Shown: positions 3,161-62,373 of the stretch, in pieces | Layout of the letters: each line of letters starts with the position of its first letter | Numbering within the stretch: the stretch's first letter is position 1 | Origin: Eledone cirrhosa | Taxonomy: Eukaryota | Direction: 5' to 3' | Assembly (NCBI GenBank): GCA_964016885.1 | Contig: OZ024761.1 | Location: forward strand, 22,010,001 to 22,074,000 | DNA length: 64,000 nucleotides | Made by a program: the position numbers and the translations under genes | Notes under the pieces: model-generated | The model's input: the letters and a program-made list of their open reading frames with translations, nothing else | Told to the model about the DNA's origin: nothing | The model's database searches: none

Positions 3161-3227
3161 GTGTTGCAATATCCGTAAGTGTGAAAAGGAAAAAAGAAAA
3201 GATTGGTGATCTCAGATTGTTAAAGCT

Positions 3228-5160
3228 AATGGAGATGACAATGGCAATGACAAGACAAGTGTAGAGAGAGGTTGTACTGAGAAAGGTCATGTCCGACCCA
3301 TGCCTGGAACAATGGAGATGACAATGACAAGACAAGACAAGTGTAGAGAGAGGTTGTACTGAGAAAGACATGTCCGACCCATGCCTGGAACAATGGAGAT
3401 GACAATGGCAATGACAAGACAAGTGTAGAGAGAGGTTGTACTGAGAAAGACATGTCCGACCCATGCCTGGAACAATGGAGATGACAATGGCAATGACAAG
3501 ACAAGTGTAGAGAGAGGTTGTACTGAGAAAGACATGTCCGACCCATGCCTGGAACAATGGAGATGACAATGGCAATGACAAGACAAGTGTAGAGAGAGGT
3601 TGTACTGAGAAAGACATGTCCGACCCATGCCTGGAACAATGGAGATGACAATGGCAAGACAAGTGTAGAGAGAGGTTGTACTGAGAAAGACATGTCCGAC
3701 CCATGCCTGGAACAATGGAGATGACAATGGCAATGACAAGACAAGTGTAGAGAGAGGTTGTACTGAGAAAGACATGTCCGACCCATGCCTGGAACAATGG
3801 AGATGACAATGGCAATGACAAGACAAGTGTAGAGAGAGGTTGTACTGAGAAAGACATGTCCGACCCATGCCTGGAACAATGGAGATGACAATGGCAATGA
3901 CAAGACAAGTGTAGAGAGAGGTTGTACTGAGAAAGACATGTCTGACCCATGCCTGGAACAATGGAGATGACAATGGCAAGACAAGTGTAGAGAGAGGTTG
4001 TACTGAGAAAGACATGTCCGACCCATGCCTGGAACAATGGAGATGACAATGGCAATGACAAGACAAGTGTAGAGAGAGGTTGTACTGAGAAAGACATGTC
4101 CGACCCATGCCTGGAACAATGGAGATGACAATGGCAATGACAAGACAAGTGTAGAGAGAGGTTGTACTGAGAAAGACATGTCCGACCCATGCCTGGAACA
4201 ATGGAGATGACAATGGCAATGACAAGACAAGTGTAGAGAGAGGTTGTACTGAGAAAGACATGTCTGACCCATGCCTGGAACAATGGAGATGACAATGGCA
4301 AGACAAGTGTAGAGAGAGGTTGTACTGAGAAAGACATGTCCGACCCATGCCTGGAACAATGGAGATGACAATGGCAATGACAAGACAAGTGTAGAGAGAG
4401 GTTGTACTGAGAAAGACATGTCCGACCCATGCCTGGAACAATGGAGATGACAATGGCAATGACAAGACAAGTGTAGAGAGAGGTTGTACTGAGAAAGACA
4501 TGTCTGACCCATGCCTGGAACAATGGAGATGACAATGGCAAGACAAGTGTAGAGAGAGGTTGTACTGAGAAAGACATGTCCGACCCATGCCTGGAACAAT
4601 GGAGATGACAATGGCAATGACAAGACAAGTGTAGAGAGAGGTTGTACTGAGAAAGACATGTCCGACCCATGCCTGGAACAATGGAGATGACAATGGCAAT
4701 GACAAGACAAGTGTAGAGAGAGGTTGTACTGAGAAAGACATGTCCGACCCATGCCTGGAACAATGGAGATGACAATGGCAATGACAAGACAAGTGTAGAG
4801 AGAGGTTGTACTGAGAAAGACATGTCCGACCCATGCCTGGAACAATGGAGATGACAATGGCAATGACAAGACAAGTGTAGAGAGAGGTTGTACTGAGAAA
4901 GACATGTCCGACCCATGCCTGGAACAATGGAGATGACAATGGCAAGACAAGTGTAGAGAGAGGTTGTACTGAGAAAGACATGTCCGACCCATGCCTGGAA
5001 CAATGGAGATGACAATGACAAGACAAGTGTAGAGAGAGGTTGTACTGAGAAAGACATGTCCGACCCATGCCTGGAACAATGGAAATGACAATGGCAAGAC
5101 AAGTGTAGAGAGAGGTTGTACTGAGAAAGACATGTCTGACCCATGCCTGGAACAATGGAC
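3228..5160. repeat. 82/76-bp minisatellite, about 24 copies, derived from a LINE 3' end
   Basis: Unit aatggagatgacaatggcaatgacaagacaagtgtagagagaggttgtactgagaaagacatgtccgacccatgcctggaac. The array ends in ggacgttaaa. Confidence 0.95.
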
Positions 5161-5165
5161 GTTAA

Positions 5166-5593
5166 ATTAATAATAATAATTGTTTCTACTTTTGGCACAA
5201 GGCCAGCATAGACCCAATGTATTACTGGTACTTTATTCTATCGACCCCGGAAGGATGAAAGGCAAAGTTAACCTCGGTGGGATTTGAACTCAGATCATAC
5301 AGGGAGGTAACTCTATGCTTCAAAGCATGGCGTCCGACCCTCTACCGATACTGCCAATCCACCGCCTAAATTAATAATAATAATAATAATTGTTTCTACT
5401 TTAGGCACAAAGCCAACAATTTTAGGGAGGGAAAGTTGATTAAATCAACCCCACTGCATTACTGGTACTTTATTTGATCGACCCTGTAAGAATGAAAGGC
5501 AAAGCTAACCTCGACGGGATTTGAATTCAGATCGTAAAGGCCCCTAATTCTTTGCGTCAAAACATGGTGTTCGACCCTCTACCGATACTGCCA
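5166..5593 (-). mobile_element. Two tandem copies of an (AAT)n-tailed SINE (family C)
   Basis: Each copy has (taa)n-tttctact..ggcacaa..actggtactttat..tcgacccc..aggatgaaaggcaaag..aacctcg..ggatttgaa. Other copies at 34178-34406 (-), partial at about 12720-12790 and 43820-43890 (+). Confidence 0.85.
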
Positions 5594-14297: not shown

Positions 14298-14364
14298 TAT
14301 TTTATTATACATATTTCAGAGGTACTGAGTTAAGTTCAACAGTACGTCCTCATCAGATAAAATA
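14298..14364 (-). ncRNA. Type I hammerhead ribozyme
   Basis: Minus strand reads tattttat-CTGATGA-ggacgtactg(ttgaacttaact)cagtacctct-GAAA-tatgta-TA-ataaaata. 8-bp stem I, about 9-bp stem II, minimal stem III. Confidence 0.82.
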
Positions 14365-14633
14365 AGGACATATATATATATATATGTCCTAGCGCCCTGA
14401 CACAAAAATATTTAGTCACCTCATATTGCCTGTACAGGTAATCAAAGTGTGTATATATATATATACACATACATACACACATATAAAGAAATTAGTTTTC
14501 AAATATAAAAAATGGAAAGGTGTATATATATATTCCTACAAACACACACATACAATGTTCCATATAAACCAAACTGTCTTATTGGTTGAATTTTATTTTT
14601 TATTTTCTGTTTCTATTTTCTTACCATTTCTAG

Positions 14634-20531: not shown

Positions 20532-20541
20532 GTAAAGTACT

Positions 20542-20943
20542 CCCAGTACACTCTGTAAAGTGGCAGTGCTGGTGTCATGATACAATACACCCAGTACACT
20601 CTGTAAAGTGGCAGTGTTGGTGTCATGATACAATACACCCAGTACACTCTGTAAAGTGGCAGTGATGGTGTCATGATACAATACACCCAGTACACTCTGT
20701 AAAGTGGTAGTGTTGATGTCATGATACAATACACCCAGTACACTCTGTAATGTGGCAGTGTTGGTGTCATGATATAATACACCCAGTACACTCTGTAAAG
20801 TGGTAGTGCTGGTGTCATGATATAATACACCCAGTACACTCTGTAAAGTGGTAGTGTTGGTGTCATGATATAATACACCCAGTACACTCTGTAAAGTGGT
20901 AGTGTTGGTGTCATGATATAATACACCCAGTGCACCCTGTAAA
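20542..20943. repeat. 48-bp minisatellite starting about 10 nt after a MED13 donor site
   Basis: Unit cccagtacactctgtaaagtggcagtgttggtgtcatgatacaataca. Confidence 0.92.
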
Positions 20944-21215
20944 TGCTAACTGTGTTAACAATAGCCCATTCACCTCTTGCTAGCAAGGAAAGCAAATGTT
21001 ACATGATGATATCACTAGAAAAGGTATAACCTGACATGACTGGGCATGAACTCAAAGTGTAGAAATAAAATACTTTTGGACATTTTGTCTGACTCTTTAC
21101 TGGTTCTCTCAGTTCCCTCTTCTGGTGAACCACGACAAGAAAAAGATAGCAATTCTGCTAGAGACCCCGCTGTTATGATTATCTTTAACATATATCATGT
21201 TCTTGTTTTTACCAG

Positions 21216-21299
21216 GAACCCTGATTTAACGTCAGAGGATATGTTGCTGATCTGGGATTTTGGGGATCCAACCTCAAAAGCTTCCTGTAACTGTATCAG
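21216..21299 (+). CDS. MED13: MED13 coding exon (84 nt, symmetric phase 2-2)
   Basis: accag|G...AG|gtaaat. NPDLTSEDMLLIWDFGDPTSKASCNCI resembles the MED13/13L 'WDF.DPT...C.C' motif. Confidence 0.85.
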
Positions 21300-21330
21300 G
21301 TAAATTAAACACAACAAACTATATCTTTAA

Positions 21331-21895
21331 CCCTTTAACATTTACATTACTCTATATATACTATTGTATTTTCACAGTAAAGGCTTTACCTCACATAATA
21401 TCTCACATAACATTTACATTACTCTATATATACTATTGTATTTTCACAGTAAAGGCTTTACCTCACATAATATCTCACATAACATTTACATTACTCTATA
21501 TATACTATTGTATTTACACAGTAAAGGCTTTACCTCACATAACATTTACATTACTCTATATATACTATTGTATTTACACAGTAAAGGCTTTACCTCACAT
21601 AACATTTACATTACTCTATATATACTATTGTATTTTTGTGGTAAAGGCTTTACCTCACATAATATCTCACATAACATTTACATTACTCTATATATACTAT
21701 TCTATTTCCACAGTAAAGGGTTTACCTCACATTTACATTACTCTATATTTACTATAGATTATATTTTCATGGTAAAGTCTTCACCTCACATAATTAATCT
21801 CACATAATATCGAATCTATAAGATTTTGATGTTATTTATTTTGAGAACAGCACCACATATGAGTGGCCAGTTACAGTCGGTTTAAACAGAATGAG
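21331..21895 (+). mobile_element. TTAA MITE with internal 72/60-bp tandem expansion
   Basis: Starts ttaa|ccctttaacattt. About 6 repeats of the 5' segment precede the MITE body. Confidence 0.8.
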
Positions 21896-22630
21896 GTTGT
21901 GTAAAGTGGTAGTGTTTGTGTCTTGATAAAATACACCCAGTACATTCTGTAAAGTGGTAGAGTTAGTGCATGATAAAATACATCCAGTATACTCTAAAGT
22001 GGTAGTGCTGATGTCATGATATAATATTCCCAGTACACTCTGTAAAGTTGTTACTGTTGTGAAGGGCATCCAACTGTTGAAGCCTTGCCAGTATGAGCAA
22101 GATGTGTTCATCTGTCCTGTTTAGTCTCAGAATATGATGAGCTGTCCAACCTATGCCAACATAGAAAATAGATATAAAAACATTGATGATGATGATAATG
22201 ATGATAATGATGAACTTTTTAAAACTAATATTCATCAAAGAACGAAAGAATGATAGAAAAAATGTTACTGTCTTCTATTTATAAATTTCTGTGATTCTGT
22301 CACATGTAAAGAGAGAGGAGTAGTTTGACTACCTCATATTACTCCCATCTCTTTACATCTGTTGGCTGCGTGAATGTAAGTGTTAAAGGAAGGAAGTGGA
22401 TGGTGCAAAAATTATAGCAAAATAGTGGCTGGCATTCCATTTGTGATGCTGTGTATGTGTGTATGTATATGTGTTAGTGTGAATGTATGTCTGTGAGTGT
22501 ATTTTTGCAAGTGTGCCTCTGTTGCACATTTATATTTATACTCATACATATCAAAGCTATATATTGAGTTAGAAATTCAAAATAGTCTGTTTCAATTAAA
22601 TAGCTCAAGGAAAGAGATTTTTCCGAGCCG

Positions 22631-22980
22631 TGTAATATAATTGAATATAAAAGAGAGATAAACATAGATATAAACATACATGTGTTTAAATCGTAAGGGA
22701 CCAGATTCGGTAGGGTGAAAAAAATGCTAACTATGAACAATAGGGTTTGCCTGACTCAATTTAATATAATAAATCAAGAAAAGAAATACAAACTGATATT
22801 GGGGCAACTGCCAGACACCCAGACAGCTTTTGGTATGGCTGTTTCGCAATATTAGCGAAGGGAATTATCAATTCTTTGCTCATCAGTGGGTGTAAAAATT
22901 AGTAAACTGGTCCCTTACGATTTGAACACATATATGTATATATCTGAGTTTATCTCTCTTTTATATTCAATTATATTACA
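22631..22980. mobile_element. 350-bp element with 74-bp terminal inverted repeats enclosing a hammerhead
   Basis: Arms 22631-22704 and 22907-22980 are reverse complements with 5 mismatches. Confidence 0.75.
22815..22893 (-). ncRNA. Type I hammerhead ribozyme, fully canonical
   Basis: Minus strand reads acaccca-CTGATGA-gcaa...ttgc-GAAA-cagc(cataccaaaa)gctg-TC-tgggtgt. 7-bp stem I, 4-bp stem II, 5-bp stem III and a GUC triplet. Predicted cleavage between plus positions 22822 and 22821. Confidence 0.9.
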
Positions 22981-23127
22981 TATAAATGTATGCACATATA
23001 CACATATACCTACATGTCAGCGTAATCTAAGTAGTAATAATTACACAAAGTAATTATTACTGTTGCATGGCAAAGAGGAAATATTTTTTCTGTGAGAGTT
23101 TACTGAGTTTTTCTTTTCTCATTGTAG

Positions 23128-23992
23128 ACACAGAAATTCCAAGTCAAAGTCGATGGCCCAGAACACGACAAAGAACCTACTCCAATATGGTGGTAGTAAA
23201 CATGTGAAGGGGGAGAAATCAGAAAAAGTTGATAGGCAGCAACAGTCACGACATGGACGGAACGTTACTCCATTTCATAGACGTTCTCTACAGCACGATG
23301 ATCTCTTTCACTTGGAGTTGGATATGATTCCTCCAATGCCCTTAAACCCTGCATTTCGCCCTCCCCCAAACTCCTCTTCCTCCTCCTCCAACAACAACAA
23401 CAATAACACTACAGCTGGTGGTGGCGGCGGTGGAGTAGGTGGTGGTGGTGGTGGCAATGGCGGTGTGACGCCTGGTCTACCCCCACAGCTCCACAACACT
23501 GTCGAACCCTGTGGCGGGAGTGGCGGAGTGGATTCACCCTCCACGCCAGCGCCCTCGCCGTTAGATTCTGAAACGCGCAACCAGCCCCTGGGCAATCAGA
23601 ACATGGACCCAGCCATGCCAACGCTGAGTCCACACCCTCCTCCACAGAAATCTGGCTTGGATAAGGACCTCGGAGTTAGCGGAAGTGTTGGTTCCAGTAG
23701 TGGAAATGGCATGGGTGCCGCTGGTGGTGGAAATGGAGGAAGCAACAACAACAGTAATAACAGCACCAACAACAACAACAATGGTGGTGTGGGTAATAAT
23801 AATAGTGTGTCAGTGAGCGGTGGTGGTGGTGGTGGTAACACGGGGAGCAGCAGCAAGCCAGCATCTGTCGGTGATTCTCAGGGGGTTATGTTGTACAATG
23901 GTAATGATTTGTATATGAAATCTGAGGAACCAAGCCCGAAAATGGAGACAGCTCCCTCACCAGCCAACCTGCAGATGCAGCATCACCATCAA

Positions 23993-24024
<32 letters not shown>

Positions 24025-24363
24025 ACAACAACAACAGCAGCAGCACCAACAACAACAACAGCAGCAGCAGCAGCAACAACAGCAACAGCACCAGCAACAA
24101 CAACAACACCAGCAGCAGCAGCAACAACATCAACAACAACAGCTGCAACAACAAACGCAGCAGATACATCCACAGCAACAACTTCAGCAGCAGCAACAGC
24201 ATGATTTCAAAATGGATACAGACAATAACAGCTGGCTACGGTCACAACACCGGCATATGGAATCTAAACTTCTAAAGCGTCCACTTCTGCCAACAAATGA
24301 AATCGAAGATGAGCAAATACTAGTCACAGAGTCTTTATATGATTTTCAAAGTTTAAATTCTTG
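23128..24363 (+). CDS. MED13: MED13 large exon, low-complexity disordered region with poly-S/N/G and poly-Q/H tracts
   Basis: tgtag|A...TG|gtgagt; 1236 nt open. Contains PFHRR and MPTLSPHPP, which resemble MED13 motifs. Phase 2 to 2 fits both neighbouring exons. Confidence 0.9.
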
Positions 24364-24399
24364 GTGAGTAGCCTTCTCATTTTCTATCTAAAACCTTTG

Positions 24400-24408
24400 C
24401 CTAGGTTT

Positions 24409-24443
<35 letters not shown>

Positions 24444-24601
24444 CATGTTTAGGTTTGGTTTCTATATATATATATATATCATATTTAGGTTTGGTATCCC
24501 AAAGTATAACAATATATATATATATATATATATATACACCATGTTTAGGTTTGGTTTCTATATATATATATATCATATTTAGGTTTGGTATCCCAAAGTA
24601 T

Positions 24602-24653
<52 letters not shown>

Positions 24654-24811
24654 CATGTTTAGGTTTGGTTTCTATATATATATATATATCATATTTAGGT
24701 TTGGTATCCCAAAGTATAACAATATATATATATATATATATATACACCATGTTTAGGTTTGGTTTCTATATATATATATATATCATATTTAGGTTTGGTA
24801 TCCCAAAGTAT

Positions 24812-24865
<54 letters not shown>

Positions 24866-24881
24866 CATGTTTAGGTTTGGT

Positions 24882-24919
<38 letters not shown>

Positions 24920-24981
24920 CATGTTTAGGTTTGGTTTCTATATATATATATATCATATTTAGGTTTGGTATCCCAAAGTAT

Positions 24982-25035
<54 letters not shown>

Positions 25036-25103
25036 CATGTTTAGGTTTGGTTTCTATATATATATATATATATATCATATTTAGGTTTGGTATCCCAAAG
25101 TAT

Positions 25104-25159
<56 letters not shown>

Positions 25160-25221
25160 CATGTTTAGGTTTGGTTTCTATATATATATATATCATATTT
25201 AGGTTTGGTATCCCAAAGTAT

Positions 25222-25267
<46 letters not shown>

Positions 25268-25329
25268 CATGTTTAGGTTTGGCTTCTATATATATATATA
25301 TCATATTTAGGTTTGGTATCCCAAAGTAT

Positions 25330-25387
<58 letters not shown>

Positions 25388-25455
25388 CATGTTTAGGTTT
25401 GGTTTCTATATATATATATATATATATCATATTTAGGTTTGGTATCCCAAAGTAT

Positions 25456-25509
<54 letters not shown>

Positions 25510-25571
25510 CATGTTTAGGTTTGGTTTCTATATATATATATATCATATTTAGGTTTGGTATCCCAAAGTAT

Positions 25572-25629
<58 letters not shown>

Positions 25630-25697
25630 CATGTTTAGGTTTGGTTTCTATATATATATATATATATATCATATTTAGGTTTGGTATCCCAAAGTAT

Positions 25698-25749
<52 letters not shown>

Positions 25750-25855
25750 CATGTTTAGGTTTGGTTTCTATATTTATATATATATATATCATATTTAGGT
25801 TTGGTATATATATATATATACCATGTTTAGGTTTGGTTTCTATATATATGTATAT
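24400..25855. repeat. Composite satellite: fixed blocks separated by variable (TA)n
   Basis: Unit caccatgtttaggtttggtttc(ta)n-tcatatttaggtttggtatcccaaagtataacaa(ta)n. Confidence 0.92.
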
Positions 25856-25857
25856 AA

Positions 25858-26197
25858 TGGAGGCACATGGCTTAGTGGTTAGAGCATTGGCCTTGCAATC
25901 GAAAGGTTGTGAGTTCAATTCTCAGACCGGGTGATGTGTTGTTTCCTTGAGCAAGACACTTTATTTCACATTGCTCCTGTTTACTCAGCTGTAGAAATGA
26001 GATGATAGGGACTGTGGTCCCTATCATTCCACTGCAAAGTGGTCGTGGAGGTGCCACTGCAAAAAAGCACCCAGCACTCACTGTAAATGAGGTTGGTGAT
26101 AGGAAGGGCATCCAGCTGTAGAAATCAAGCCAGAATCAGTTCCCGTCCCACCCTTGCAAGCAGGGAAAAGCGGACGTAAAATGATGATGATGATGAT
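25858..26197 (+). mobile_element. Full-length tRNA-derived SINE (family A) with RTE-type 3' tail and (GAT)n end
   Basis: A box TGGCTTAGTGG, B box GAGTTCAATTC, CORE-like 'ccttgagcaagacact', tail ggacgtaaaa(tga)n. Further copies at 19021 and 26378. Confidence 0.88.
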
Positions 26198-26818: not shown

Positions 26819-27081
26819 CAGGGTGCCCCCCCCCCCCCCCCCAAAAAAAAATTTAAACCTTTAAAATAATGTATTAAAATAATAAATTCTGTTTTATATG
26901 CATTATTTTATACATTATTTTTATTTTATACATTATTTTATACATTTATACATTTTTCAGTGTTTACATACAATTGATTTATGTGTGTAGATCATTTTAT
27001 TTTCGGGAAAGGCTGTGCATTCTAATAAATATTGCCTGTACAGGTAATTAAAGTATGTATACATTTTTGGGGGACACCCTG
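26819..27081. mobile_element. Tc1/mariner-type MITE with TA target-site duplication
   Basis: ta|CAGGGTGCCCC...GGGGACACCCTG|ta terminal inverted repeats. Confidence 0.78.
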
Positions 27082-47006: not shown

Positions 47007-47161
47007 GACTGGTCCTGTGTGTTCAAACCGCCCAAGTTGGCTCGTTTTGTTGGTTCTACCAAATATGCTCCTGTAGAGCTGCCTAGTACTAACGAGGCTG
47101 TATTATTTTGTCAAATTCCAGAGTATAAACCATCTTGGCAGTACCAGCCACATGCACCAAG
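47007..47161 (+). CDS. MED13: MED13 coding exon
   Basis: ttccag|GAC...AG|gtagaa. DWSCVFKPPKLARFVGSTKYAPVELPS...YKPSW resembles MED13 'DFSYV.KP.....VG.S.FAPL..LPS...Y..SW'. Phase 0 to 2. Confidence 0.9.
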
Positions 47162-47199
47162 GTAGAAGCTTTTTCTTTCTTTCTATACTGAAATAATTC

Positions 47200-49005
47200 T
47201 CCAGTCCACACTGTAAAGTGGTTGTGTAGGTGTCATGACAAAAAACACCCAGTCCACACTGTAAAGTGGTTGTGTAGGTGTCATGACTAAAAACACCCAG
47301 TCCACACTGTAAAGTGGTTGTGTTGGTGTCATGACTAAAAACACCCAGTCCACACTGTAAAGTGGTTGTGTTGGTGTCATGACTAAAAACACCCAGTCCA
47401 CACTGTAAAGTGGTTGTGTTGGTGTCATGACTAAAAACACCCAGTCCACACTGTAAAGTGGTTGTGTTGGTGTCATGACTAAAAACACCCAGTCCACACT
47501 GTAAAGTGGTTGTGTAGGTGTCATGACTAAAAACACCCAGTCCACACTGTAAAGTGGTTGTGTTGGTGTCATGACTAAAAACACCCAGTCCACACTGTAA
47601 AGTGGTTGTGTTGGTGTCATGACTAAAAACACCCAGTCCACACTGTAAAGTGGTTGTGTAGGTGTCATGACTAAAAACACCCAGTCCACACTGTAAAGTG
47701 GTTGTGTAGGTGTCATGACTAAAAACACCCAGTCCACACTGTAAAGTGGTTGTGTAGGTGTCATGACTAAAAACACCCAGTCCACACTGTAAAGTGGTTG
47801 TGTAGGTGTCATGACAAAAAACACCCAGTCCACACTGTAAAGTGGTTGTGTAGGTGTCATGACTAAAAACACCCAGTCCACACTGTAAAGTGGTTGTGTA
47901 GGTGTCATGACAAAAAACACCCAGTCCACACTGTAAAGTGGTTGTGTAGGTGTCATGACTAAAAACACCCAGTCCACACTGTAAAGTGGTTGTGTAGGTG
48001 TCATGACAAAAAACACCCAGTCCACACTGTAAAATGGTTGTGTAGGTGTCATGACTAAAAACACCCAGTCCAAACTGTAAAGTGGTTGTGTAGGTGTCAT
48101 GACTAAAAACACCCAGTCCACACTGTAAAGTGGTTGTGTTGGTGTCATGACTAAAAACACCCAGTCCAAACTGTAAAGTGGTCATGTAGGTGACACAACA
48201 AAATGCACCCAGTCCACACTGTAAAGTGGTCATGTAGGTGACATAACAAAATGCACCAGTTCACACTGTAAAGTGGTCGTGAAGGTGACAACAAAATGCA
48301 CCTAGTACACACTGTAAAGTGGTCGTGTAGGTGACAACAAAATGCACCTAGTACACACTGTAAAGTGGTCGTGTAGGTGACAACAAAATGCATCCAGTCC
48401 ACACTGTAAAGTGGTCGTGTAGGTGACAACAAAATGCACCTGGTACACACTGTAAAGTGGTCGTGTAGGTGACAACAAAATGCACCCAGTCCACACTGTA
48501 AAGTGGTCGTGTAGGTGACAACAAAATGCACCCAGTCCACACTGTAAAGTGGTCGTGTAGGTGACAACAAAATGCACCCAGTCCACACTGTAAAATGGTC
48601 GTGTAGGTGACAACAAAATGCACCTAGTACACACTGTAAAGTGGTCGTGTAGGTGACAACAAAATGCACCTAGTACACACTGTAAAGTGGTCGTGTAGGT
48701 GACAACAAAATGCACCTAGTACATACTGTAAAGTGGTCATGTAGGTGACAACAAAATGCACCTAGTACATACTGTAAAGTGGTCATGTAGGTGTCACAAC
48801 AAAATGCACCCAGTTCACTGTAAAGTGGTCATGTAGGTGACATAACAAAATGCACCCAGTTCACACTGTAAAGTGGTCGTGTAGGTGACAACAAAATGCA
48901 CCTAGTACACACTGTAAAGTGGTCGTGTAGGTGACAACAAAATGCACCTAGTACACACTGTAAAGTGGTCATGTAGGTGTCACAACAAAAAGCACCCAGT
49001 ACACT
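47200..49005. repeat. Two abutting related minisatellites (48-bp unit, then about 46-bp unit)
   Basis: cccagtccacactgtaaagtggttgtgtaggtgtcatgactaaaaaca switches near 48180 to cactgtaaagtggtcgtgtaggtgacaacaaaatgcacc. Confidence 0.95.
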
Positions 49006-60505: not shown

Positions 60506-60592
60506 TGACATGTGCCATGCTTGTCGTACCCTATATATGTCTCTACATACATATATATGTTATTAATATTATCCCAATGACAACAGTAAATA

Positions 60593-62373
60593 TCCTTTAA
60601 CATTTACATTACTCTATATATACTATTGTATTTGCATAGTAAAGGCTTTACCTCACATAATATCTCACATAACATTTACATTACTCTATATATACTATTG
60701 TATTTTCACAGTAAAGGCTTTACCTCACAAATCTCACATAACATTTACATTACTCTATATATACTATTGTATTTTCACAGTAAAGGCTTTACCTCACATA
60801 ATATCTCACATTGCTCTATATATACTATTGTATTTTCACAGTAAAGGTTTTACCCCACATAATATCTCAGATAACATTTACATTACTCTATATATACTAT
60901 TGTATTTTCACAGTAAAGGCTTTACCTTACATAATATCTCACATAACATTTACATTACTCTATATATACTATCGTATTTTCACAGTAAAGACTTTACTTC
61001 ACATAATATCTCACATAACATTTACATTACTCTATATATACTAGTGTATTTTCACAGTAAAGGCTTTACCTCACATAATATCTCACATAACATTTACATT
61101 GCTCTATATATACTATTGTATTTTCACAGTAAAGGCTTTACCTTACATAATATCTCACATAACATTTACATTGCTCTATATATACTATTGTATTTTCACA
61201 GTAAAGGCTTTACCTTACATAATATCTCACATAACATTTACATTGCTCTATATATACTATTGTATTTTCACAGTAAAGGCTTTACCTTACATAATATCTC
61301 ACATAACATTTACATTGCTCTGTATATACTATTGTATTTTCACAGTAAAGGGTTTACCTTACATAATATCTCACATAACATTTACATTGCTCTATATATA
61401 CTATTGTATTTTCACAGTAAAGGCTTTACCTCACATAATATCTCACATAATATTTACATTACTCTATATATACTATTGTATTTTCACAGTAAAGGCTTTA
61501 CCTTACATAATATCTCACATAACATTTACATTACTCTATATATACTATTGTATTTTCACAGTAAAGGCTTTACCTCACATAATATCTCACATAACATTTA
61601 CATTACTCTATATATACTATTGTATTTTCACAGTAAAGGCTTTACCTCACATAATATCTCACATAACATTTACATTACTCTATATATACTATTGTATTTT
61701 CACAGTAAAGGCTTTACCTTACATAATATCTCACATAACATTTACATTACCCTATATATACTATTGTATTTTCACAGTAAAGGCTTTACCTCACATAATA
61801 CCTCACATAACATTTACATTACTCTATATATACTATTGTATTTTCACAGTAAAGGTTTTACCTCACATAATATCTCACATAATATTTACATTACTCTATA
61901 TATACTATTGTATTTTCACAGTAAAGGCTTTACCTCACATAATATCTCACATAATATTTACATTACTCTATATATACTATTGTATTTTCACAGTAAAGGC
62001 TTTACCTTACATAATATCTCACATAACATTTACATTACTCTATATATACTATTGTATTTTCACAGTAAAGGCTTTACCTCACATAATATCTCACATAACA
62101 TTTACATTACTCTATATATACTATTGTATTTTCACAGTAAAGGCTTTACCTTACATAATATCTCACATAACATTTACATTACTCTATATATACTATTGTA
62201 TTTTCACAGTAAAGGCTTTACCTCACATAATTATCTCACATAATATCGAATCTACGAGATTCTGATATTATTTATTTTGAGAACAATACCTTAACATCAG
62301 TATGAGCAGCCGGTTTGATCAGAAAGAATTGAGAGAATTCCGGCCAGATATGGCCAGTTTAAATACTAAAGGG
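60593..62373 (+). mobile_element. TTAA MITE inflated by about 23 copies of a 72-bp unit
   Basis: Array spans about 60601-62240. The MITE body follows and ends aaatactaaaggg|ttaa, 31 nt before a MED13 exon. Confidence 0.85.

Follow-up and report, generated by a model that had tools for sequence, protein, structure and literature searches.

A dispersed hammerhead-bearing repeat in a MED13 intron, most likely inserted by Penelope-type integration

The MED13 locus

The window, that is, the whole 64-kb stretch of DNA analysed here, carries the gene MED13 on its plus strand, as delineated by tblastn searches with mollusc and annelid MED13 proteins and by AG/GT splice sites. The intron at about 20532-23127 holds an insertion that contains a hammerhead ribozyme motif between two inverted repeat arms (Table 1). 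The acceptor AG of this intron ends at 23127, 147 nt past the outer end of the right arm at 22980, and the exon that follows is the largest found by tblastn in the window; distance and exon are both those of the original prediction. The best relatives, determined for one MED13 exon, were one protein with 81% identity and then bivalve proteins with 48-53%. The abundance of microsatellites in the introns and the types of repeat present suggest an octopod host.

Several other features of the locus are worth recording. The exon downstream of the insertion is greatly expanded, with poly-Gly and poly-Asn stretches and a poly-Gln/His tract of ~70 residues. At position 23121, within the polypyrimidine region and 7 nt ahead of this exon, a contig of run X1 and one RAD read (see below for the runs) have G in place of A, likely an allele or an assembly difference. 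A family of 60/72-bp minisatellites occupies two MED13 introns ~40 kb apart (~21251-21807 and 60567-62265), many further minisatellites are intronic (for example, 3226-5166, 24381-25900, and 47103-48260), and a 36-bp fragment of a dispersed repeat occurs in two introns in copies that are 92% identical (14423-14458 and 27029-27064).

Table 1. Features of the insertion and its surroundings (positions in the window)
Feature	Position	Strand	Basis or remark
Degenerate (TA)n host target, left flank	22528-22547		18 of 24 letters fit (TA)n over 22528-22551
Forward family copy	about 22544-22906	minus	Run depth, six-frame translation
One-sided 3' tail, forward copy only	22544-22630	minus	About 83-87 nt; high depth and loose ends at 22544/22548
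Left arm, internal stretch of the forward copy ending at the short 3' end of the family	22631-22704	minus
Family stretch linking arm and ribozyme	22705-22814	minus	Depth ~22,000 falling to ~2,500
Type I hammerhead motif	22815-22893	minus	Antisense to MED13; motif search, shuffles, folding, family differences
Short leader upstream of stem I, with inversion junction	22894-22906	minus	Putatively forward copy
Right arm, a second copy in inverted orientation, truncated at its 5' side and reaching the short 3' end	22907-22980	plus
Degenerate (TA)n host target, right flank	22981-23008		21 of 28 letters fit (TA)n
MED13 exon after the host intron	23128-24363	plus	tblastn, AG/GT sites; 1,236 nt

Anatomy of the insertion

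The insertion, 437 nt in all and devoid of ORFs in six-frame translation, consists of a forward copy of a repeat family and a much shorter inverted one. The forward copy has its 5' end at about 22897-22908 and a long 3' end at about 22544-22548; the stretch 22544-22898 comprises 355 nt with a GC content of 32.7% and contains no ATG-started ORF longer than 40 codons in any of the six frames. Inspection of the locus found the tail sequence absent beyond the right arm. Motif search and self-BLAST detected no further copy of the family inside the window. Self-BLAST also revealed a weak resemblance between 22905-22883 and 22730-22707 on the same strand, for which we considered a decayed tandem start.

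The arms differ at exactly 5 of 74 sites, the number of mismatches that the original prediction had reported for these inverted repeats. The mismatches are uncompensated, and there are private changes on both arms (22665, 22687, and 22947); the five differences match neutral decay after insertion, as expected. With a published calibration in which a distance of 0.09 corresponds to 25 million years (quoted in PMC13282606), and provided that the arms were identical at insertion, ~3.5% change per arm would date the insertion to roughly 10 million years ago, with a very wide margin. Target-site duplications (TSDs), the presence of which had been left to be checked, were not found at the ends of the arms, where CG stands against TA, and none is clear for the larger unit, the flanks of which share only TA-like chance matches of 4-6 nt.

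The hammerhead motif

The motif at 22815-22893 has the defining elements of a type I hammerhead, namely, the CUGANGA and GAAA boxes, a NUH triplet, and three helices with helix I open. On the minus strand, stem I spans 7 bp (22893-22887 with 22821-22815) and is followed by the core box CUGAUGA (22886-22880), a 4-bp stem II (22879-22876 with 22849-22846) closing a 26-nt loop II, the GAAA box (22845-22842), and a stem III of 4 bp plus the A15.1-U16.1 pair (22841-22838 with 22827-22824) with a 10-nt loop III. The triplet is GUC, and the predicted cut falls between 22822 and 22821. Among 300 dinucleotide-shuffled versions of the window, none had stems of at least 7/4/4 bp and 1 had stems of at least 5/4/3 bp. 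The complete minus-strand hammerhead of the original prediction, with its stems, core boxes, and GUC, was confirmed, whereas the Rfam search proposed along with it gave no hammerhead match, either at the gathering threshold across the whole window or at E<=10 on 22500-23100, where only chance matches appeared. It is doubtful whether an inner hairpin drawn earlier in loop II belongs to the fold of the family, as 1,497 of 1,522 depth units carry at 22868 a letter that favors another pairing. The ATG inside CUGAUGA was rejected as an ORF start, as its frame runs for just 40 codons and is broken elsewhere in the family by listed 1-nt indels.

The minus-strand orientation makes the hammerhead antisense to MED13, and therefore, the MED13 pre-mRNA is not cleavable by it; it is the transcripts of the element itself, in source copies, that the hammerhead would process. 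Nearest-neighbor folding, a model outside of which lie tertiary contacts and Mg2+, predicts that the copy in the MED13 intron misfolds. Here, a competing hairpin of 5 bp forms within loop II (22859-22855 with 22847-22843) and ties up the GAAA box, which leaves stem II with a pairing probability of ~0. When constrained to the active fold, the motif has a free energy of -13.3 kcal/mol, 6.5 kcal/mol above the minimum free energy fold (-19.8 kcal/mol), and the ensemble gap is 7.4 kcal/mol. A difference at 22856, present in 324 of 339 depth units in run X4 and in 323 of 924 in run X1, breaks the competing hairpin and, in the model, narrows the ensemble gap to 2.7 kcal/mol; the listed family differences are unphased. 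Within the motif, all 8 listed substitutions and 5 listed indels are located in loops II and III (P ~0.001 for the substitutions, computed on the listed rows, besides which there are 153 weaker differences). This confinement among the listed differences points to selection on the ribozyme at the level of the family. When the unit was folded as a circle, the ribozyme was not stabilized (stem I probability 0.09-0.48, stem II 0).

A second type I hammerhead-like motif is present on the minus strand of a MED13 intron at 14299-14367. It has an 8-bp stem I, a vestigial stem III, and a long stem II with one unpaired base, that is, the minimal kind found in Penelope-like elements (PLEs); a (TA)n tract lies ~45 nt after it and a 26-nt palindrome around (TA)n before it. 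This motif probably marks where another PLE family has its 3' end.

A dispersed family in public sequencing runs

We aligned four public runs on 22521-23180 at 80% likeness: X1, consisting of contigs, probably from the source sample; X4, also contigs; and X5 and X6, raw RAD reads from two other samples. Depth summed over contigs is no copy number, and only its contrasts and polarity are readable. In these terms, the insertion belongs to an abundant and strongly polar family. The X1 depth is 11 on the unique flank and 1,350-103,000 across the forward copy, with a mean of 70,655 over the tail (22543-22630), 127,633 for both arms together, 22,878 in the middle (22719-22762), and 1,568 over the ribozyme, which amounts to a drop of ~45-fold from the 3' end of the family to the ribozyme (ribozyme-to-tail ratio 0.022). 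The RAD runs, with a depth of 0-1 on the unique flank, have a depth shape similar to that of X1; they yielded 3,008 and 3,097 matched reads, 96% of which pass into unlike sequence. There is no step in X1 depth at the predicted cut (1,325 at 22814 and 1,328 at 22835).

The runs also define the ends of the family. It starts at ~22544-22548, 83-87 nt outside the left arm, and is TA-rich beyond this point in other copies. Contigs that continue past 22980 read (TA)n, so that 22631/22980 is a second 3' end; the family has two 3' ends, ~85 nt apart, both opening on (TA)n. In 32 X1 contigs and in 170 and 181 RAD reads, what precedes 22907 is similar to 22705-22735 in reverse complement, and therefore, the right arm is an inverted copy shortened at its 5' side.

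Run X4 covers the MED13 exon 23128-24363 but not 23027-23114 and so looks like an RNA run. Its ribozyme-to-tail depth ratio of 0.28, compared with 0.022 in X1, hints at transcription of ribozyme-bearing copies, contig depth being a poor measure of expression. One X4 contig carries 207 unlike letters beyond 22908, which could be upstream element sequence or host flank; the depth arithmetic suggests that it is the dominant contig, with a depth of 345.

Forward and inverted copies at variable junctions

Of the 37 joints in the alignments, 15 are listed, and loose ends are likewise considered among those listed, with 528 more besides. At least 12 of the 15 listed joints have a forward-plus-inverted junction, at varying points. 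Eight skip into the right arm from a 5' end of a forward copy, at 22572, 22575 (twice), 22580, 22664, 22716, 22764, and 22793; another four connect the two strands at points other than the right arm (22614/22673, 22615/22897, 22648/22708, and 22703/22897); the remainder are two that read as small deletions inside the arm and one that is ambiguous. The forward-plus-inverted layout with variable break points, which are spread over more than 200 nt among the joints listed, is a habit of the family, as is extensive 5' truncation, with forward 5' ends from 22572 to 22793 among the listed joints and the low depth of the ribozyme relative to the tail. No head-to-tail joint is present among the 15 listed joints, and a direct (tandem) pseudo-LTR (pLTR) was found neither among them nor at the locus.

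Arm and ribozyme do recur together elsewhere, a point on which the original prediction had called for a check: in record 6 of X1, the hammerhead is joined to an inverted copy that starts at 22703. With 14 other letters and 5 gaps in 130, this record comes from another locus, the layout of which nearly matches that of the copy in the MED13 intron. In these two copies and in record 10 of X4, the inversion junction lies at most ~40 nt upstream of stem I, a placement in three copies that random truncation of a long element does not predict. Among the 16 records listed, 5 end their match at 22897-22898, and 2 of these are joined there to an inverted copy.

Two joints represent derivatives of other kinds. 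The joint from 22793 to 22918, a composite without the ribozyme, has a depth of 223.6 in X1 (~20 times unique) and occurs in both RAD runs, so that this composite itself has been multiplied. At the joint from 22764 to 22894, an X1 contig (depth 10.3) seemingly keeps 22894-22921 and lacks 22765-22893, that is, the whole ribozyme; this is a deletion derivative, an allele, or a chance extension of the alignment.

Origin of the insertion

Truncated and inverted PLE insertions are common in mollusc genomes. Penelope-type integration very probably explains the architecture of the MED13 insertion, taking together the cases in which the integrated RNA was the pLTR end of a longer element and in which it was a short passenger. 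With modest confidence, we favor the former: the insertion is most likely the truncated 3' end (pLTR) of a longer Penelope-like retrotransposon, a copy of an abundant hammerhead family that landed antisense in a (TA)n tract of the intron. Strong 5' truncation is characteristic of PLE insertions, and a second copy, inverted and itself shortened at the 5' side, often gives rise to flanking inverted repeats (Craig et al. 2021, PMC8557442); the same source reports tails of 30-40 bp at one end and hammerheads in pLTRs, and the same layout is given in a curation guide (PMC8969392). In vitro, a PLE protein nicks AT-rich DNA and reverse-transcribes from two internal sites, the interval between which corresponds to the tail, with mainly uncleaved RNA as the template (Frangieh 2024, PMC11167929).

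By analogy with this literature, a GIY-YIG/RT protein would nick the AT-rich DNA, and reverse transcription would be primed at two internal sites of the element RNA. A start at ~22544 would produce the forward copy, halting ~13 nt upstream of stem I, and a start at 22631 would produce a 74-nt copy that would be joined to it head-to-head in the opposite orientation. On this reading, the arms arose as a side product of integration rather than as terminal repeats. The two internal start sites fit the two 3' ends of the family, the use of uncleaved RNA as the template agrees with the absence of a depth drop at the cut site, a longer source element would give an X4 contig such as the one with 207 letters past 22908, and the minimal PLE-type hammerhead at 14299-14367 lies beside (TA)n in the same window. 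Against a longer PLE speaks that no RT or GIY-YIG ORF was found at the locus, although a 437-nt insertion without ORFs is what would be expected of a truncated element end; the long tail, the full stem III, the three inversion junctions close to stem I, and the lack of a direct pLTR at the locus and among the listed joints weigh on the same side.

The original prediction had suggested a possibly undescribed ribozyme-carrying, non-autonomous element, bounded by the arms and fitting neither of the known layouts cleanly. Its description as mobile, ribozyme-carrying, and non-coding stands; the boundary does not, given that the family continues 83-87 nt past the left arm, that the inner break points vary among copies, and that the arm ends lack a TSD, and neither does the lack of a known layout, as an inverted 5'-truncated flanking copy with a one-sided tail is the PLE layout of the cited account (PMC8557442). 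The same proposal had named, as a finding that would count against it, that the unit is just an inverted end of a known Penelope family; for the architecture, this is largely what we found, with no named family matched and no RT ORF detected.

The main competitor shares the mode of integration. Here, the mobilized RNA would be a short (~355-365 nt), ORF-less, retrozyme-like monomer headed by the hammerhead and mobilized in trans by an autonomous PLE, with the MED13 copy being near full-length, a reading that we consider possible but rather doubtful. The length, the GC content, the canonical type I ribozyme, and the lack of an ORF fit retrozyme monomers (PMC7229834), a pLTR origin of retrozymes has been argued in a preprint (Li et al. 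2026, bioRxiv 10.64898/2026.07.22.740005), and the records that stop at 22897-22898, along with the higher ribozyme-to-tail ratio in RNA-like X4, point the same way. However, some of the stops at 22897 are to be expected from a reference stretch that itself ends at 22908; the depth of contigs reflects expression poorly, and the type of X4 was deduced from coverage; one X4 contig, probably the dominant one, runs on for 207 letters past 22908; the circular fold fails to stabilize the ribozyme; and a head-to-tail joint is missing among the 15 listed of 37. A related tentative possibility is a short, non-tandem, SINE-like PLE passenger with a full hammerhead, transcription from source copies, and an unusually long tail of ~85 nt. 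If true, the short passenger would combine a retrozyme-type ribozyme with PLE-specific scars (an inverted truncated copy, two 3' ends, and a TA target) and would be direct genomic evidence that PLE proteins mobilize retrozymes.

The other readings dispense with Penelope-type integration, and we consider all of them improbable. A new MITE- or foldback-like non-autonomous element with fixed 74-bp terminal inverted repeats carrying the ribozyme is very unlikely: although the arms are real, the arm of record 6 in X1 starts at nearly the same point (22703), and the 22793/22918 composite has multiplied, albeit without the ribozyme, the spread of break points by more than 200 nt among the listed joints largely refutes this reading, and the extension of the family beyond the left arm, the strongly polar depth, and arm ends that lack the TSD expected of a MITE with terminal inverted repeats also speak against it. 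Elements of the DIRS type, which encode a tyrosine recombinase, carry terminal repeats in inverted orientation and an extension on one side, lack a TSD, and integrate as whole circles; their repeats are described as 'inverted or split direct repeats' (PMC8557442). Inverted ends, one-sided extension, and the lack of a clear TSD at the locus are compatible with a non-autonomous element of this type, but the 45-fold polar gradient and the variable inner junctions are unexpected for integration of whole circles, and self-BLAST found no internal complementary region, which leaves this origin highly improbable. Equally little credence is due to a regulator retained by the host, acting either through an arm duplex in the MED13 pre-mRNA that would influence how the next exon is spliced or A-to-I edited, or through an antisense transcript of the ribozyme that would regulate MED13. 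According to the folding model, the arms could pair in the pre-mRNA, and their duplex would be stable (z = -16, computed for 22620-22990 on the minus strand) at a distance of 147 nt from the acceptor; yet, nothing sets the insertion apart from the many other members of its family, none of the 5 mismatches between the arms is compensated and each arm has private changes, the ribozyme lies antisense to the gene and is predicted to misfold, and any such effect would be a side effect rather than the origin.

Under the preferred reading as a PLE end, the insertion is an ordinary one, and its modest value lies in a family that seems not to have been catalogued and that combines a full stem III with a long tail. 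Should the unit prove short and ORF-less, the family would be a clean test case for the link between retrozymes and the PLE machinery. Abundant head-to-head insertions would supply intronic double-stranded RNA, which, should the host be a cephalopod, might be relevant to RNA editing.

Comparison with known systems

The literature search found no paper on octopus or cephalopod hammerhead families, and the word 'ribozyme' is absent from the main text of the O. vulgaris repeat paper. In the literature searched, as distinct from Repbase and Dfam, no named family matches the one described here, which may already be catalogued. Metagenome scans gave 0 matches for the ribozyme pattern and 0 for an arm 20-mer; 15-mer matches at 10 loci in viral contigs, none of which extends beyond 16-20 nt, were dismissed as chance. 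The amniote hammerheads HH9 and HH10 are likewise intronic type I hammerheads with full stems, but they are single-copy and conserved, unlike the dispersed repeat studied here, which is antisense to its gene and has no Rfam match to HH9 or HH10.

The non-LTR retrozymes of metazoa, for example, the 350-390 bp repeats of Mytilus, are closer (PMC7229834; 10.64898/2026.07.22.740005). Their monomers of ~170-400 nt carry full type I hammerheads (PMC7229834), and the forward copy resembles them in its size of ~355 nt, low GC, and lack of coding capacity, as well as in having a canonical type I hammerhead, the helix III of which is stable. Retrozymes that occur as solo monomers have been described too. 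The forward copy (355 nt, 32.7% GC) falls within the retrozyme range of 150-450 bp, GC below 50%, non-coding sequence, and a canonical type I hammerhead. The differences are that the MED13 intron holds a single unit rather than a head-to-tail tandem array with a hammerhead in each repeat, that no head-to-tail joint appears among those listed, and that most copies of the family are 3' fragments without the ribozyme. An inverted partner copy and a tail are features that the portions of the retrozyme literature covered here do not mention (PMC7229834; 10.64898/2026.07.22.740005).

The PLEs that encode an endonuclease (EN+; Penelope/Poseidon, Neptune, and Nematis) differ from the insertion in some respects. 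The tail of ~85 nt (83-87) is more than twice the reported 30-40; the full 4-bp stem III, which is more retrozyme-like, and the 26-nt loop II contrast with the minimal hammerheads reported for metazoan PLEs, in which helix III is short or absent (PMC4209133); and the insertion in the MED13 intron has no ORF. Naiads, two octopus families of which prefer (TA)n (supplement of PMC8557442), are without canonical hammerheads; of four short family motifs compared with the supplementary Naiad, Chlamys, and Hydra sequences, three were absent and the fourth occurred once, in an unrelated context. The likenesses to EN+ PLEs, with Naiad as the reference for target preference, concern the architecture itself: 5' truncation with an inverted 5'-truncated copy at the 5' end; a one-sided tail arising from two 3' ends, with no poly(A) and no clear TSD; an AT-rich or (TA)n target, here with flanks that are TA-like at 18 of 24 and 21 of 28 letters; and a type I hammerhead near the 3' end, here 270-350 nt from the long 3' end. 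We file the insertion as one that works like a PLE insertion.
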